From a candidate division FCPU426 bacterium (lineage in GTDB: Bacteria > Oederibacteriota > Muellerivitia > Muellerivitales > Muellerivitaceae), in the NCBI GenBank assembly GCA_003136635.1, contig PLFD01000035.1, forward strand, positions 13,984 through 77,983: DNA of 64,000 bases, in the 5' to 3' direction. The notes below the pieces were generated by a model that searched no databases, was not told where the DNA came from, and worked only from the letters and a program-made list of their open reading frames with translations. The first letter of the stretch is position 1. Each line of letters starts with the position of its first letter. Shown piece by piece: positions 4,609 through 33,926 of the stretch. The translations under genes were made by a program, and so were the position numbers.

Positions 4609-5183
4609 CCCTCACTGATCATTCGTTTCACTATTTCTCTCAAATCCGCCGTGCAGCGTGCCAACCGGGACATCACAGTCCCCATAGGAACTTTCAAGGT
4701 CCTGGCGATCTCGACGTAACTGGCTCCCGACCGACTCCTTAATTCAAGAATTTGGCGGCAGGGGCTGCCCATTTTTTCCAACGCGCTGCGAACAATCTCC
4801 GTTTTCACTTTTAACTCTTCGGATCGCGAATGCTCTTCCGCCGATTCCATAGCTTTCGACCGCAATAACCCTTCCAGCGATTCCTGTTCCTGCGCTACCA
4901 ATCGGCCCTTCTGTCGAAAATGCCGGTAGCACTGGTGGATACAAATCTGTGTCAGCCAGGTATTCAAACTCGAACGAAACTCGAACTGAGAAAGTTTTTG
5001 GAATGCTGTCAAAAAAACTTCCTGGAGAATATCCTCAATGGCTGGATCGTTCGCACCCATCATGTAGACGCAAAAACTGTAAAGTTTTTGTTTATGGGCT
5101 TGATAGAGATCAAATTTGGCCCGCTCGTCGCCCTTGAGGACTTTTTCGACCAGTTTCCGCTCGTCCAAAGAATCCCCTATCAT
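4599..5183 (-). CDS. ECF-family RNA polymerase sigma factor
   Basis: EDILQEVF, FEFRSSLNTWLTQI (region 2) and SYVEIARTLKVPMGTVMSRLAR (region 4.2). Confidence 0.93.
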   Translation of the reverse strand: MIGDSLDERKLVEKVLKGDERAKFDLYQAHKQKLYSFCVYMMGANDPAIEDILQEVFLTAFQKLSQFEFRSSLNTWLTQICIHQCYRHFRQKGRLVAQEQESLEGLLRSKAMESAEEHSRSEELKVKTEIVRSALEKMGSPCRQILELRSRSGASYVEIARTLKVPMGTVMSRLARCTADLREIVKRMISEGWK

Positions 5184-5354
5184 TTACTTAGTGCCGTCCC
5201 GAGGAAATATATTCCCGAAACGGTCAAAACAGTCTTAAAAAATGAATAGAACTTTCGCGGAATGAATCCAAGAATGAATAAAAAGGGTTAAAAGGCTTGT
5301 AAAAGACTCAATTTGATAGAAATCGGTTTGAGATCAAAACTTCAAGAAATAGAA

Positions 5355-12779: not shown

Positions 12780-15700
12780 TTAATGAAACACTAAAACCTT
12801 GCCGGTTTTGGTCGTTATCTCATAGCCGTTATTTACTTGTATCGAGTAAATATAAAGCCCGCTCGCCACAGCTGATTGGGCTTTGTTTCTCAATAACCAG
12901 GTAATCGTATTCATTCCAGTGTTGCCTTCTGTCGTATCCGAATAAACTTCCTCGCCCATCAAGGTATATAAATTCAGTTGAATCGAAGCGTTATAGCCCA
13001 GGTTGATCATAAACTTAATCGGTTCTCCATCTCTGGAGATATTCGGACCAGCCACTGCTGATATCAGTAAACCAGAAGCTGTTGGTGTAGGCGTCAAAGC
13101 ATTCACCGATATTGGTTCATTAGTGCTTGCAGCGGTAACGTTGGGTGTGGGCGTGTTGGTCGCAGTACTCTCCGAAGGTTCAAAAATACCAACAGCAGCC
13201 CTGACCACACCGGGCACAACTGTCGGTGTCTTAGTCAGCGTTTTAGTAGGTGTAAAAGTACTCGTCTTGGTGGGCGTTGAAGTAGCGGTATTTGTCTTCG
13301 TATTCGTGGGTGTGTTGGTCGGTGTTTTAGTGGGTGTGAAAGTGTTGGTCCTGGTTGGTGTCACCGTAAAGGTATTTGTTTTCGTAGGTGTCGCTGTAAT
13401 CGTAGGCGTTTTAGTCGGGGTAATAGTCGGTGTCTTTGTTTTCGTAGGAGTGGCGGTAATAGTCGGTGTGTTGGTCGGCGTGAAAGTTTTCGTCTTGGTA
13501 GGGGTTACAGTAGGCGTTTTGGTTTTTGTCGGTGTAGCTGTAATGGTCGGCGTATTGGTTACTGTAGCGGTTTTAGTCTTGGTAAAGGTGGCCGTAAAGG
13601 TGGAAGTATTAGTTCTCGTGGGCGAATTGGTAGGCGTAAAGGTCTTGGTGGAAGTGCTGGTTATAGTATTAGTAGCTGTCTGTGTTTTCGTCGAAGTGTT
13701 AGTCGGCTGTACCGTCGATGTATTGGTCAGTGTATTGGTAAACGTAATAGTTGGGGTATACGTCTGCGTATTCGTAAAGGTGTTAGTTGGCGGTACTGTG
13801 GGTGTATAGGTCCGTGTATTAGTAAATGTACTAGTTTGCGTGTTCGTTGCCATGGGCGTGTAGGTTGGACTGGTCAAACAATTCGTCACAGGGCAATTTC
13901 CGAATCCAAATACTTGGCTGTTCCCGTCATCGGCCACATACCAATTGCCGCCATTCCCCACGGCGACTCCTTCTGTGTCCAAGAAGCCCGTGCTTCCATC
14001 CTGTCCATATCCAAGGAAATTACCGTTTAGGTCAAAAATACCCACTGATCCGAATCCGTCCGTCACATAAGCCAGACAATTCCCATATATCGTGATGAAA
14101 TTTGCCGCCAAAAGTGTTGTCCCTTGCGTCACATCCCACTGCGACATGAAAACACCGCCGGAGGTGAACACCTGCACCAGACCCGTACCTTCATCTGCCA
14201 CATAAACATTACCCGAAGCGTCCAAGGCTATTCCCAGCGGCGTGTCAAAAGTCCCATTGGACCCAGTCCCCGGGCCGCCCCATTGGGTAATGAACGCACC
14301 CTGATTGTTAAACATTTCTACCCTTTGGCCGCCCGCATCCACCACATAAATACTGGTTCCCTGTGGATTTACTGCGATACCGTAAGGCGTAGTAAATTGG
14401 CCATTCCCTGTTCCCAAAGAACCAAAATTTACCGCCAATGCCCCTGGGTTGGTGGGGCCGTTGACCGCATTAAATATATCCACCTGGTTTTGGAATTCGT
14501 CTGTCACATAAATATTACCGCTTCCATCCAACGCCACTCCCACCGGCTGATTCAGCGTCCCCAAACCCACCTGAGTCAAGGCCGTGCCTCCGGACGTGAA
14601 GACCTTTACCGAATTATCTAAAGTTTCAGCGATGTATACGTTTCCGGTGCCGTCCAAGGCTACACCCCAGGGCTCGTCCTGGACCCACGAATTCAGCGCC
14701 TGACATAACGAAGGTGCAGAGGTGGGTGATGGTGTTAAAGTAGGGGTAGATGACTGAGTCTGTGTATTCGTGGGTGTATTGGTTGCCAAAACGGTGGGGG
14801 TACAAGTAGGTACGAGGGTGATGCAAACTGAACTTGAAGCCCATCCAGTAACATCCATGGCTGTGTTTCCATTACCAGAATAATCTGCTGAGGTTGTACC
14901 CGTTCCTTCGTCGGCATGCCAACCAGCAATTAATCCATTATTCCACGGCCCCAAACACGAGGCCATATTTCCATGATATCCATTTCCAGAATTCCATAAA
15001 AATGTGATTTCAGTGGCAGATAGAACGCGATTAAAAATCAATGGTTCGTCAATTAATCCAGCATATGGAATTTGACCACTAAAAGTTGAATCGCCGAAAA
15101 TAACAGCACTTGGGGTTCTCAATAACGGAGAAACTGTTCCGGCTGAACCGGTTAAAAAAGAACCATTATTATAAGATGCAAAAGCACCAGATATTGAATC
15201 ATATGTAAAGCACAAAAACGACCATGTGTTTAATGGAAGAGCAGTATTATCACCTACGCTCGCTCTTACCTGTGTATATGAAGCATCGTTAAACCAAAAC
15301 CATTGTGGAGCCGCTCCAAAGTTAGCAACAAGAAACATTCCGTCAGTGGCCGTGCCTCCAGGTGTAGTAACGCCTCCAACTATTGGTTGAAGACTACTGC
15401 CAGAAATTGAACTCGGATTTACCCAAATACAAAATGAAAAACTTGTTGTTGGAATTAATGTATTGGTCATCGTTACGCCAGCAGATTGAGAACCTGTAAA
15501 CGACCAAGCGGTTTGGCCGTCACTAACAGTGAGAGTCGATGTCGGGGTATTCGTGGAAGTATTAGAAGGCGTATTGGTTGGTGTATTCGTCAATGTGTTT
15601 GTAGACGTATTTGTTGAGGTGGGTGTGGGCGATGTTGTCAAAGTTGGAGCAGGTGATGCTATAAAGGTCGGTGTCAGCGTCGGAAAAGGCTGCTCATAAG

Positions 15701-29555: not shown

Positions 29556-30020
29556 TCAAATGTGACAGCTTCCCAGACCCCGTTTGGCCAGGTATTGCTG
29601 GTGATAATCCTCGGCTTTCCAAAAGGTTTTGGCGGGCACAATTTCAGTCACGATCTCCCGGGGAAAGAGCTTCTGCGCTTTTTCCTTGGAAGCCTTGGCG
29701 GTTTTTTCCTGCTCGGGGCTATGGAAAAAAATGGCCGAGCGGTATTGGGTGCCGACATCCGGACCCTGGCGGTTTAACGTGGTCGGGTTATGCCCCTTCC
29801 AGAAAACATCCAGAAGAGCGTCATAGCCAATTTGGGCGGGATCGTAAGTGACTTCCACCACTTCGGCATGAAGGGTGCGGCCAGTGCAGACATCCTCGTA
29901 AGTTGGGCGTTCCAAATGGCCACCCTCATAACCGACGGCGGTAGATGTGACGCCTTTTAATTGGCGGAAAGATTCTTCCACTCCCCAAAAACAGCCTGCC
30001 CCAAAAGTAGCTTTTTCCAT
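29556..30020 (-). CDS. msrA: Peptide methionine sulfoxide reductase A
   Basis: [26 protein letters not shown]. Confidence 0.97.
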
Positions 30021-30209: not shown

Positions 30210-30235
30210 TACTGAAAAAGAAGAAAAGAAGTTAC
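30210..30235 (-). promoter_or_regulatory. ECF (SigF/ECF16-like) promoter for msrA
   Basis: Minus strand GTAACT-N16-AGTA, same as upstream of the DUF2282 gene. Confidence 0.6.
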
Positions 30236-30408: not shown

Positions 30409-30627
30409 TTAGGCAAAAGCCAACTTTCTACCTTTTGGCCGGGGGATTTCACGTCCTTCTTCCTTAGCCGTATGAATCCATTCTTTGATAATTACCTGAA
30501 CATTCTTTAATGATTTGCCATAAGTTTCTCCATCGGCCATACAACCGGGCAATTCTGGAACCTCCGCAATAAAAGCGTGGTCGTCTTCACTCCAATAGAT
30601 AATCACTTCGTATTTGTCATTCGCCAT
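30409..30627 (-). CDS. hicB: HicB-family antitoxin (short, no DNA-binding domain)
   Basis: YEVIIYWSEDD.AFIAEVPELPGCMADG...W......GREIP.P. Confidence 0.9.
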   Translation of the reverse strand: MANDKYEVIIYWSEDDHAFIAEVPELPGCMADGETYGKSLKNVQVIIKEWIHTAKEEGREIPRPKGRKLAFA

Positions 30628-30877
30628 TTAATCCTCCAAACTTGTACTTCAAAATCAATCCTCTAACTTGTTTAACTTGATAAGGCTTCGCTTTATTGCC
30701 GTCCGATTGCAAATTGATGATTTCTTCTACTCCATCTTTTACAAAAATATGATGACTGCCTTTCACGCGTTCCCGAAATTCCAAATCTTTGAGCAAATGA
30801 CATAATTCACTAAAACGAATATTGACATCAGCCCTGCCGCTTAGGATTTGTGCTAAAAGCCTTTTTTTCTTACTCAA
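30617..30877 (-). CDS. hicA: HicA-family toxin
   Basis: KGSHHIF, EIINLQ, KAKPYQVKQV; overlaps hicB. Confidence 0.9.
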   Translation of the reverse strand: MSKKKRLLAQILSGRADVNIRFSELCHLLKDLEFRERVKGSHHIFVKDGVEEIINLQSDGNKAKPYQVKQVRGLILKYKFGGLNGE

Positions 30878-30973: not shown

Positions 30974-31768
30974 TTAAATAGAATGGAAATCTGTCAAATT
31001 ACTTTTAAAATCATCGGCTATCCAGCCCTGTTTGAGTGTGAACCAATAAGCTTCCCGAACATTTTCCTCCGAAAGGCCGGTGGATCTCACTAGGGCTGAA
31101 GTGGTTTTTCCCGCCATCGTTTCTTTCATCACGGTCATCAGGATTTCATTTACCGGCGTCACCCTCGGGCTTCCCTCGTCAGACCAAACCACCAGCGATT
31201 CCGGTTCCTTTTTGAACATTTCGCCCTCAAAACCATCCACGCCCTTTTCGGTAAAACCAGCCCAGGCTTTGTGAATTTTATAGGCGGATTGCACCAGCCG
31301 GACTGAATTCTTAAACCTTAGTTTTGATTCCCGCCCGATTTCAGGCAATTCACCCGTCAACGACGGTTCGGGTGGAGCGTAAAAAGCCCGCTCCAAAGCC
31401 CATTCCAGCCGGGCCACCTCCGGGATAAAGGCCAGATGCTGTATTTCTTCCCGGCCCGCCAAAAAATCCCCAAAGCCGCCGCCATACTGAATCAGGTCCG
31501 AATCACGGGAAGGATTTTGATACAGAAAATCCCGGCTGAAAAAGTTGAAATTATTCTCACCCAGCAGCACCCGGGTGAAAACATAGGTTTCTTTCATGGC
31601 GCCGATCAACCCAAAAACCAGATTGCCCCGGTAAATCTTGAGCCCGTTATGGGGGTCCGAATGCTGAGGGTCCAGAAAGTAGGACCGAATATGGTTTTTC
31701 TGCTCTTCCCCGGGCTTGGCGGTATAAAGAAATTCAATGAACTCCTTTTGCAGTTGTTCAAGCGACAT
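30974..31768 (-). CDS. DUF2063 (HvfC/BufC-type) MNIO partner protein
   Basis: L..LQ..F, GLKIYRGN, YG..F..FL, EVARLEWA..RAFYA. Confidence 0.85.
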   Translation of the reverse strand: MSLEQLQKEFIEFLYTAKPGEEQKNHIRSYFLDPQHSDPHNGLKIYRGNLVFGLIGAMKETYVFTRVLLGENNFNFFSRDFLYQNPSRDSDLIQYGGGFGDFLAGREEIQHLAFIPEVARLEWALERAFYAPPEPSLTGELPEIGRESKLRFKNSVRLVQSAYKIHKAWAGFTEKGVDGFEGEMFKKEPESLVVWSDEGSPRVTPVNEILMTVMKETMAGKTTSALVRSTGLSEENVREAYWFTLKQGWIADDFKSNLTDFHSI

Positions 31769-32585
31769 GGGATACCCCGCTCAGAACCGCCTGGGCCTTT
31801 TGGGCTTCGGCCCAGACCACCTCAAAGGCCGGAATATTCAAATCCCACTCCATTAACGTCGGCACCTGGGGAAAGCGCGCCGCGGCATACCGGTAAAGAT
31901 CCCAAACTTCATCGCACACCGCCGAACCGTGATTATCGACCAAAATACCCTCGGTTCTCAAATGACCGGCCAGATGCATTTCCTTCACCCGGTCCACCGG
32001 CATGGCATCTATATAGAGATAAGGATCAAACCGAAGGTTTTCGGAATTCACGTAAATATTATTAATATCGAGAAGCAGGTGGCAATCGGCCTTTTCCACC
32101 ACCGCTTTGACGAATTCCCACTCGGTCATTTCGGATTGGTTGAATCTCAAATAGCCCGAAAGGTTTTCAATCAGCATGCGCCGGCCCAGTTTTTCCTGGG
32201 CTTGCTGGATACGGGAAGCCGCGTGGGACACCGCGTCGGCGGTGTAGGGCAAAGGTAAAAGGTCGTGCGATTGGAGGCCGTTGGCGCCGACCCAGCAAAG
32301 ATGGTCGGATATCCACTGGGGTTGGTAGCGTTCGATCAGTTCGGAAAGTCTTTTAAAATAGCTGTCGTTGAGAACTTCGGTAGAGCCCAGGTTCATGCCC
32401 AGACAATGAAAGGTCAGCGGATAGTGGGTTCTGATTTTTTCCAGAGCCCGATGGGGTATTTCACCTTGGTTGAGATAGTTGTCCGCCATCACCTCAAACC
32501 AGGGAACCGGGGGTTTGTTTTCTAAAACACCCGATAAATGGGGGGAGCGGAGACCCATCCCCGCCCCCTGAATAACAGATCCCAT
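31758..32585 (-). CDS. DUF692 multinuclear non-heme iron oxidative enzyme (MNIO; BufB/HvfB-like)
   Basis: G.GLR, WFEV.ADNY, SDHLCW, DLLPLPYT, IEN, LLDINN, EMHLAGH, DNHG, EWD. Confidence 0.93.
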   Translation of the reverse strand: MGSVIQGAGMGLRSPHLSGVLENKPPVPWFEVMADNYLNQGEIPHRALEKIRTHYPLTFHCLGMNLGSTEVLNDSYFKRLSELIERYQPQWISDHLCWVGANGLQSHDLLPLPYTADAVSHAASRIQQAQEKLGRRMLIENLSGYLRFNQSEMTEWEFVKAVVEKADCHLLLDINNIYVNSENLRFDPYLYIDAMPVDRVKEMHLAGHLRTEGILVDNHGSAVCDEVWDLYRYAAARFPQVPTLMEWDLNIPAFEVVWAEAQKAQAVLSGVSHVA

Positions 32586-32596
32586 AAATTAATCTC

Positions 32597-32899
32597 TTAC
32601 ATCGCCGCCGCTGGGGCCGCGTCTGCCGGCTTCAAGCTTCCGCCGATTTTATCGCTCACACCCTTGGGCAAATAGATCCATTCGTTCGGATCGTTATCGA
32701 CCTTGGACTGGCCGGCGCAGGAATGACCTTTGGCGGCGCAATCGTTCTTGCCGGCCTTGGCCACACCATAAACCTTCTCTACTTTGATTCCCTTAATCTT
32801 GGTCCAGTCACCCGCGTGGGCGGTGGTGGTAAGGGCAACCGCGCTAAAAGCGACAGCGGTGGCAATGGCGGTGGTTGAGGCTAATTTGGTACCGTTCAT
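32597..32899 (-). CDS. DUF2282 (BufA1-type) RiPP precursor with signal peptide; only two Cys
   Basis: EKVYGVAKAGKNDCAAKGHSCAGQSKVDNDPNEWIYLPKGVSDKIGG; SD AAGGAG before MNGTK. Confidence 0.85.
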   Translation of the reverse strand: MNGTKLASTTAIATAVAFSAVALTTTAHAGDWTKIKGIKVEKVYGVAKAGKNDCAAKGHSCAGQSKVDNDPNEWIYLPKGVSDKIGGSLKPADAAPAAAM

Positions 32900-32950
32900 A
32901 ACAACTCCTTTAAAATTAATAAGCCCTCCCAAAGAAGAGCTGGAAATAGA

Positions 32951-32976
32951 TACTCCCCGACCGGAAAGAAAGTTAC
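32951..32976 (-). promoter_or_regulatory. ECF (SigF/ECF16-like) promoter for the RiPP operon
   Basis: Minus strand GTAACT-N16-AGTA. Confidence 0.6.
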
Positions 32977-33022: not shown

Positions 33023-33228
33023 GTCATTGCGAGGAGAAACCGTCGAATAGACGGTTGTCATCGACGAAGCAACCCCAGTTTAAATAAAGTTTGAACCCTC
33101 CACATTACCAACAACCCAAGCACCGTCGTTGTACATGGGCTTTGCCCATGCAGGGTCGGCCACACAGGCTGACCACTTCAAGCCTGTCATAACCAGCCCC
33201 CTATTCAGGGGCCATTCCTCGCAATGAC
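33023..33228. repeat. Palindromic REP/RPE-like element
   Basis: 13-bp terminal inverted repeats gtcattgcgagga / tcctcgcaatgac, internal cgaagcaa and nested hairpins. Confidence 0.7.
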
Positions 33229-33266: not shown

Positions 33267-33292
33267 GTAACCCTTTTCCCCCTTATTCCGTA
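33267..33292 (+). promoter_or_regulatory. ECF (SigF/ECF16-like) promoter for yceI
   Basis: GTAACC-N16-CGTA, 37 nt before the ATG. Confidence 0.6.
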
Positions 33293-33329: not shown

Positions 33330-33926
33330 ATGAAAAAAGGTTTTATGATTTTAGCCTTGGTTTTAGGGGTCTTTTCCGCCGTCAGTATCAGTCAAGCCGC
33401 TGTTTACAAGATAGACCCGGACCACAGCAGTATTACCTTTAAAGTAAAGCATCTGACCATCAGCACAGTCATGGGAAAGTTTTCCAAATTTTCAGGAACA
33501 TTTAACTTTGACGAAAAGAATCCCTCCCAATCGAAGGTCACGGTCACCATTGACCCGGCCAGCGTGGATACAGGCGTCAAGGGCCGCGACGACCATTTGC
33601 GCAGCGACGCCTTTTTCGAGGTGGAAACCTATCCGACGGCCGTTTTCAAAAGCACCAAAGTCAGCGATATCAAAGACGGGGATTTTACCATTGAGGGTAA
33701 TTTGACCCTGCATGGGGTGACCAAGCCGGTGGTGTTAAAAGCCAGCTATGAAGGTTCCATCGCCGACGATCAGGGCCAGACCCACGCGGCTTTCAGCGCC
33801 GAAACCGAAATCAACCGGCAGGATTACGGAATTGACTTCAGCGAAGCCCTGGATAAGGGCGGCCTTTTAGCGGCCAATGAAGTGAAATTGAGTTTTGAAG
33901 TGGAAGGCGTTCAAGCCTCCCAATAA
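33330..33926 (+). CDS. YceI-family polyisoprenoid-binding periplasmic protein
   Basis: YKIDPDHS...F.VKHL, RDDHLRS.AFF, GNLTLHGVTKPV, INRQDYG. Confidence 0.93.
   Translation: MKKGFMILALVLGVFSAVSISQAAVYKIDPDHSSITFKVKHLTISTVMGKFSKFSGTFNFDEKNPSQSKVTVTIDPASVDTGVKGRDDHLRSDAFFEVETYPTAVFKSTKVSDIKDGDFTIEGNLTLHGVTKPVVLKASYEGSIADDQGQTHAAFSAETEINRQDYGIDFSEALDKGGLLAANEVKLSFEVEGVQASQ

Follow-up and report, generated by a model that had tools for sequence, protein, structure and literature searches.

The closest described relative of the locus reported here is the bufferin 1 system of Caulobacter vibrioides (bufA1B1C1D1, CCNA_03363-03366; Leprevost et al. 2024, PMC11626156), in which a DUF2282 precursor with an N-terminal signal peptide is encoded in A-B-C order with a BufB-type MNIO and a DUF2063 protein, in a SigF-driven cluster that also includes bufD (doxX). 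Descriptions of bufferin 1 treat four cysteines as a constant of the family, and removal of the outer pair makes the peptide vanish (PMC11626156, PMC12452194). Bufferin 2 (BUF_6/12Cys) and the EGKCG peptides (oxazolin, fontiphorin and gonophorin, or 'captophorins', PMC13097082) likewise combine an MNIO with a DUF2063 protein, Cys-derived thiooxazoles and copper binding, but their precursors belong to families different from the one considered here. Here we describe a bufferin-1-type operon, bufABC, whose precursor has lost both outer cysteines, on a 64,000-nt stretch of DNA (the window: positions 13,984 to 77,983 of contig PLFD01000035.1, GenBank assembly GCA_003136635.1) from a candidate division FCPU426 bacterium. 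We consider it quite probable that this is a real, selected and probably expressed operon in which the outer cysteines were replaced once, in a genus-level clade, in an event unrelated to doxX.

The window lies on contig C61 of a source genome (G000) that comprises 61 contigs and is 89.7 % complete, and the operon occupies its minus strand as three closely packed genes:

32597..32899, minus strand: bufA, DUF2282 (bufferin-1-type) precursor, 100 aa (Pfam DUF2282, PF10048)
31758..32585, minus strand: bufB, MNIO (DUF692) maturase, 275 aa (Pfam and NCBIfam)
30974..31768, minus strand: bufC, DUF2063 partner, 264 aa (Pfam PF09836), overlapping bufB by 11 nt

The bufA frame is intact, with an ATG at 32899, the sequence AAGGAG 5 nt upstream and a stop at 32597-32599, and its product matches Pfam DUF2282 over residues 41-88 with 77.8 bits (cut-off 22.4). 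BufB scores 347 bits against Pfam MbnB_TglH_ChrH (PF05114) and 350 bits against the NCBIfam equivalog MNIO_BufB (NF050167, cut-off 310), and BufC scores 57.1 bits against Pfam DUF2063 (cut-off 27.2) and, weakly, 27.7 bits against NCBIfam HvfC, below the cut-off of 142. The precursor reaches only 19.2 bits against NCBIfam BufA2 (cut-off 60), and no EGKCG repeats were found in it. Given the family scores of the three genes, the cluster is of the bufferin-1 type in the sense of Leprevost et al. (PMC11626156), and these assignments agree with a first-pass annotation of the same DNA, which had proposed that a signal-peptide DUF2282 precursor, a DUF692 enzyme and a DUF2063 partner form a bufferin-type operon.

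The precursor reads MNGTKLASTTAIATAVAFSAVALTTTAHA followed by GDWTK...EK-V43-YG...ND-C54...HS-C61-AG...PKGV-S82-DKI...M100. Residues 1-29 form a putative signal peptide, recognized by eye alone from Lys5, a hydrophobic segment at 11-23 and Ala27-His28-Ala29 before Gly30, which would leave a mature peptide of 71 aa. As in C. vibrioides bufferin 1, the two central cysteines stand in the family's usual sequence context: Cys54 (TGC, 32738-32740) and Cys61 (TGC, 32717-32719) are retained, GKNDC54 and HSC61AG are invariant across the 20 sequences of alignment A1, and the surrounding residues (GKNDC, HxCAG) are the same as in four-cysteine homologues. In contrast to bufferin 1, the site of Cys I is Val43 (GTT, 32771-32773) and that of Cys IV is Ser82 (AGC, 32654-32656; Ala in some relatives), so that no disulfide between them is possible. 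Both codons stand exactly where the first-pass annotation had placed them, and its estimate of at least three substitutions at the two sites holds as well, the change from TGY to GTT taking two and that from TGC to AGC one. With Cys II (C54) and Cys III (C61) only, bufABC departs from the published picture of bufferin 1 in one defining trait, the four cysteines, and agrees with it in the other traits that can be assessed from sequence.

The two-cysteine pattern recurs well beyond this genome. Among the best 120 of 1249 homologues, 105 have four cysteines, and 12 of the 15 exceptions are cluster representatives with the two-cysteine pattern (P0001-P0012), the further exceptions including P0018 and P0019. 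The pattern is also present in a genome of the same genus (G001, 84 % identity) and at 12 metagenome loci (L129-L140), each of which has bufB next to bufA, and bufC wherever the contig extends. We gauged selection on 13 coding sequences (the window, the same-genus genome and 11 metagenome contigs) over a 56-codon mature core, for which the pairwise ratio of nonsynonymous to synonymous substitution rates (dN/dS) had a median of 0.088 and a maximum of 0.233 (63 pairs). The codons for Cys II and for Cys III are intact in all 13, the Val site is GTT or GTC in every one, and the Cys IV site is AGC (Ser) in 10 and GCC (Ala) in 3. The replacement is maintained by purifying selection. DNA contigs from two other studies span both codons with no differing letters, and these exact copies, together with the synonymous GTT/GTC variation among the 13 coding sequences, confirm the earlier supposition that the Val and Ser codons are no sequencing error.

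The operon is probably expressed, and RNA-library contigs from two studies span the whole precursor gene (32547-32898) as well as parts of bufB and bufC. The two runs concerned lack contig cover over ~32899-32955 and over much of bufB and bufC, although contigs cannot show absence. The RNA-library contigs of both studies end at 32898, inside the start codon and with no loose end, and the DNA contigs continue past this point; the shared end hints, though weakly, at an RNA 5' end, and it would not fit the promoter-like motif 52 nt upstream that is described below. The runs containing the stretch are labelled peat or permafrost metagenome; at least half of its words are present in 14 rows, three of them being marked as possible sources.

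Beyond this clade both outer positions were Cys in every homologue sampled. A profile search of 1.84 billion representative proteins returned 1529 clusters at E <= 0.001, and among the best 150, which we inspected, the outer cysteines were missing only in the clade's own representative, the rest comprising 153 domains with all four cysteines (CCCC) and three alignment oddities. In 80 further species genomes 102 of 103 BufA open reading frames (ORFs) were CCCC, the one exception being a truncated ORF call, and in an earlier locus set 56 of 63 were CCCC, five others being copies of the window or G001 gene and two being Thiotrichaceae paralogues. Among the ~350 BufA sequences examined, then, loss of the outer cysteines is rare and confined to one genus-level clade. 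We found no description of a two-cysteine Buf1 in the literature on bufferin, DUF2282 and MNIO, of which part was accessible and in which supplementary tables may list precursors with fewer cysteines. The two Thiotrichaceae paralogues come from a metagenome-assembled genome in which five tandem DUF2282 genes lie upstream of one MNIO (L063); at L063:3952-4191 and 5063-5302 the outer cysteines are kept and the central pair is gone together with the intervening segment, the opposite of the loss in the window.

In a maximum-likelihood tree of 51 BufB proteins, ten two-cysteine loci form one clade (100/99). It lies inside a clade of 14 rows (95/97), of which the remaining four are four-cysteine loci of the same bacterial family, and the loss therefore took place once and is derived. 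The four-cysteine precursors of the family (G005, G015, G016 and G021; P0013-P0017, P0020 and P0021) are 54-61 % identical to that of the window and resemble it in the mature N-terminus DWTK, in the synteny of yceI with bufABC (msrA being adjacent too in G015 and G016) and in having no adjacent doxX; they differ from it in retaining Cys I and Cys IV. Precursors of the Ala variant have a distinct, shared C-terminal tail yet occupy two places on the BufB tree, which points to recombination between closely related strains.

In the published BufA1 model the disulfide staples the first beta-strand to a short helix (PMC11626156). Our AlphaFold2 model of the 71-aa mature peptide, made with a 144-sequence alignment, had a mean predicted local distance difference test score (pLDDT) of 85.7 and a predicted template modelling score of 0.70, with strands at mature residues 11-15 and 45-49 (precursor 40-44 and 74-78) and a helix at 52-56 (precursor 81-85). 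This predicted fold, which agrees with the published account of BufA1, has Val43 in strand 1 and Ser82 in the short helix; given that these are the two stapled elements, Val/Ser(Ala) can be read as a packing replacement of the staple, and the peptide would, on the model, fold without a disulfide. An AlphaFold2 run with the 20-sequence alignment A1 was poor (pLDDT 50.5) and was discarded. A search of solved structures for sequence relatives gave 0 matches at E <= 1, and the 25 rows returned by Foldseek had E values of 4-10, none of them reaching E <= 0.001. In studies of bovine pancreatic trypsin inhibitor, Val/Ala replacements are the classical way of substituting stably for a buried disulfide, a parallel rather than a result of this work.

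The mechanism that we propose would run as follows. The precursor would be exported by Sec and cleaved after Ala29, whereupon BufB, the MNIO, would with the DUF2063 protein BufC oxidise Cys54 and Cys61 to 5-thiooxazoles, which would chelate periplasmic copper as Caulobacter Buf1 has been shown to do. In place of the family's structural Cys I-Cys IV disulfide stand Val43 and Ser82 (or, in some strains, Ala), and the operon would be part of a small sigma-F/NrsF-type stress island (yceI, bufABC and msrA), each unit behind a GTAAC-N16-xGTA motif. The features of this putative island that flank bufABC are:

33330..33926, plus strand: yceI, secreted YceI-like protein, divergent neighbour (Pfam YceI, 179.6 bits)
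33267..33292, plus strand: promoter-like motif of the sigma-F (extracytoplasmic function, ECF) type, GTAACC-N16-CGTA, 38 nt upstream of yceI (alignment)
32951..32976, minus strand: sigma-F (ECF)-type promoter-like motif GTAACT-N16-AGTA upstream of bufA (alignment and genome scan)
30617-30877, minus strand: hicA toxin (Pfam HicA_toxin)
30409-30627, minus strand: hicB antitoxin (Pfam HicB_lk_antitox, UPF0150)
30210..30235 (C61:44193-44218), minus strand: sigma-F-type promoter-like motif GTAACT-N16-AGTA, 190 nt upstream of msrA (genome scan)
29556..30020, minus strand: msrA, peptide methionine sulfoxide reductase, conserved downstream neighbour (Pfam PMSR, 218 bits)

The gene yceI adjoins bufA also in the same-genus genome, in family relatives and at metagenome loci, and it probably belongs to the same regulon as bufA. 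Downstream, msrA directly follows bufC in the same-genus genome, two four-cysteine relatives and six metagenome loci (L044, L045, L047 and L129-L134), and hicAB sits between the two in the present genome only; given the direct junction in the relatives, hicAB looks like a recent insertion into the island. Upstream of bufA, GGTAACTTT-N6-GTC-N4-AGTAT, which is the form GTAACT-N16-AGTA, is invariant in five otherwise diverged loci. A motif of the GTAACT class precedes bufA at all nine two-cysteine loci and at two of the four four-cysteine relatives scanned, and the same class recurs at the syntenic site before yceI (L044, L045, L046, L048, L129, L131-L134 and L137) and at the bufC end, before msrA (L044, L129 and L131-L134). 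In C. crescentus the sigma-F motif reads GTAACC-N16-CGAA (PMC3511200); the bufA motif differs from it in the -10 element (AGTA rather than CGAA).

A scan of the genome for GTAACT-N16-[AC]GTA gave 7 matches, of which five lie 12-190 nt upstream of a gene (C10:12117, C31:49447, C51:83356 and the window sites at 32951-32976 and 30210-30235). The genes behind these five sites encode an ECF sigma factor (followed by nrsF), an N-terminally extended MsrA, a pyridine-nucleotide disulfide (thioredoxin-reductase-like) oxidoreductase, BufA and MsrA, and they make up a candidate oxidative- or metal-stress regulon. Three ECF-sigma/NrsF pairs are present in the genome (contigs C10, C51 and C56), two of them checked by Pfam. 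From the position of the motif, the function of the linked genes and its conservation, on which the case for a promoter rests, we infer that bufABC may be under the control of a sigma factor of the sigma-F type, as is the cluster of C. vibrioides.

Within the spacer between yceI and bufA, a 32-nt stretch (33197-33228) has a second exact copy in the genome at C31:59840 and draws numerous metagenome contigs that are unrelated (depth 94 in X4). The stretch is part of a hairpin-bearing segment of ~200 nt that is common to the window and L131, the counterpart in L130 and L133 being quite different, and the segment may be a small mobile repeat. At the other end of the precursor gene, a C-terminal Met is present in all two-cysteine precursors and several four-cysteine relatives of alignment A1, and other relatives have Lys/Met-rich tails (e.g. 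...MKMDK); such Met/Lys tails may be extra metal sites or oxidant-sensitive sites beside the conserved msrA.

Several points weigh against the reading of bufABC as a selected, probably expressed bufferin-1-type operon that lost its outer cysteines once. The chemistry is known only by analogy, since it is from the Caulobacter system that we infer thiooxazole formation and copper binding by the window peptide. In the alignment behind the structural model 132 of the 144 rows are four-cysteine proteins. The only experimental datum on removal of the disulfide goes in the opposite direction: Caulobacter Buf1 in which CysI and CysIV were both changed to Ser was undetected and thought to be proteolysed (PMC11626156), and the stability of the window peptide must therefore rest on compensation. 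RNA libraries can contain DNA, so the RNA-library contigs do not prove transcription. The promoter-like motif is not enriched genome-wide, its 7 matches comparing with ~12 expected from genome length (a rough estimate made with no shuffles); the strict clade consensus matched the bufA site alone, and looser forms were not enriched either. Because the inspection covered the best 150 of the 1529 clusters, further lineages free of the disulfide may exist. Finally P0018, a 62-aa protein from a single metagenome contig, has Cys at site I and Ala at site IV and, barring this Cys and its first residue (the called start), equals the Ala-type two-cysteine precursor of L131 and L132 exactly; it is either a Cys I/Ala IV intermediate or a chimera produced by assembly at the conserved GKNDC stretch, where a 179-nt contig of a four-cysteine relative has 35 nt in common with the window.

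Given the fate of the Ser/Ser mutant, which lacks cysteines at the same two positions as the window peptide, it was reasonable to consider that the precursor has ceased to function as a bufferin, and is instead unstable, unmodified or repurposed, for example as a sacrificial or redox peptide of the sigma-F/MsrA island. The conserved neighbours msrA and yceI and the clade-conserved C-terminal Met are consistent with such a role, and SigF/NrsF regulons elsewhere serve in defence against hypochlorite and methionine oxidation (PMC4436054). The natural variant differs from the laboratory mutant, however, in having Val at site I, in being under purifying selection and in its presence in RNA libraries. 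A median dN/dS as low as that of the mature core, and the retention of both central Cys codons throughout, are not what such a peptide would lead one to expect; moreover, wherever a locus is long enough bufB and bufC are both intact, the BufB score exceeds the curated cut-off for BufB, and the residues flanking the central cysteines are those of the four-cysteine homologues. We therefore regard loss of bufferin function as unlikely.

The first-pass annotation had proposed a disulfide-free bufferin subfamily that shed its disulfide jointly with DoxX, the redox helper, possibly in adapting to reducing or anoxic niches. It was right that no doxX is adjacent: a whole-genome search found five DoxX matches, on contigs C51, C31 and C11, and none on the window's contig C61, and no doxX is adjacent at any two-cysteine locus, an absence that fits the proposal. 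The peat and permafrost labels of the runs point the same way, such habitats often being reducing, as does the distribution of disulfide machinery that is set out below. But the four-cysteine family relatives G005, G015, G016 and G021 also have no DoxX near bufA, the gene being on other contigs or >450 kb away, and none of the 14 rows of the BufB family clade (ten two-cysteine and four four-cysteine) has a cluster doxX. The gene was therefore gone from the cluster before the disulfide cysteines were, and the two losses are separated in time.

To place this in a wider setting we counted clusters in which a four-cysteine BufA lies beside BufB, scoring DoxX within 3 kb with a hidden Markov model built from the five DoxX ORFs of the genome and iterated, whose calls agreed with Pfam in 10 of 10 cases (5/5 matches were DoxX, as were 0/5 other membrane-protein ORFs near clusters scored as lacking it). 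DoxX was present in 13 of 34 clusters of one sample and 47 of 72 of another, or 60 of 106 in total (one contig, L013 and L258, being counted in both samples). The earlier statement that doxX normally follows the cluster thus holds for a majority, but 46 of the 106 four-cysteine clusters are without it, four of these being the family kin just named and ~11 having <1.5 kb of flank on one side, so that they may be false negatives. In Caulobacter, moreover, deletion of doxX reportedly had no effect on modification or on copper protection, and the buf2 cluster is likewise without doxX (PMC11626156). As the outer cysteines were lost in one evolutionary event, that event by itself cannot show co-occurrence of Cys I/IV loss with absence of doxX. 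Thus the disulfide-free subfamily stands, as a conserved clade, while its joint origin with loss of doxX does not, and the proposed coupling of outer cysteines to doxX is refuted.

One of the DoxX genes of the genome lies at C51:110725-112736 (loci L002 and L162), divergent from an ECF sigma factor gene and nrsF. Both directions of this region carry GTAACC-N16-GCTA, accounting for two of its four genome matches, and doxX therefore persists under a related promoter type outside the cluster. The sigF-adjacent DoxX has weak similarity to cluster-borne DoxX (best E 5e-14).

Oxygen and disulfide machinery lend the niche proposal little more. COX1 (heme-copper oxidase) matches were found in 29 of the 31 family genomes (G000-G030), including all three of the genus (G000, G001 and G002), which argues for oxygen respiration, and MNIO enzymes use O2 (10.64898/2025.12.15.693703). 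DsbB was not found in any of the 31, and VKOR, present in 12 of the 31, was not found in the two-cysteine genus; this is the distribution that favours joint loss. However, both are equally missing in the four-cysteine genomes G005, G021 and G015, and in G016 DsbB is absent and VKOR is represented only by a fragment below the cut-off. Thioredoxin_4 (DsbA-like) matches occur in 14 of the 31 genomes, including G000, G002, G005 and G015 and excluding G001. We considered disulfide machinery as a driver of the cysteine loss and rejected it, there being no contrast between two-cysteine and four-cysteine genomes; at most, a weak capacity to form disulfides may serve as a permissive background. Adaptation to reducing or anoxic niches is not favoured, and joint loss with DoxX as a whole we judge very unlikely.

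A sequencing, assembly or gene-calling artefact, for which the contig count and incompleteness of the assembly might leave room, has a negligible chance of accounting for 13 independent coding sequences with synonymous variation at the Val codon, for DNA contigs of two other studies identical over both codons, and for an intact reading frame, ribosome-binding site and stop.

Taken as a selected bufferin-1-type operon with a single loss of its outer cysteines, bufABC is modest in scope, concerning as it does one small clade and a chemistry that would follow from analogy. It nevertheless separates the disulfide and DoxX, which had been assumed to be linked. More tentatively, and with rather less than even confidence, we suggest that Val/Ser (or Val/Ala) is a selected and self-sufficient substitute for the disulfide, which arose in a lineage without DsbB and VKOR and would leave fold, MNIO recognition and copper binding free of periplasmic disulfide formation. 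If this is true, the disulfide is dispensable for bufferin function; a two-residue swap, perhaps with a few background changes, could then rescue the unstable Cys-to-Ser laboratory mutant and provide a disulfide-free scaffold for producing thiooxazole metallophores. A natural clade that lacks the outer cysteines, retains its maturase genes and is under strong purifying selection offers a ready means of testing what purpose the disulfide serves and which substitutions make up for its loss.

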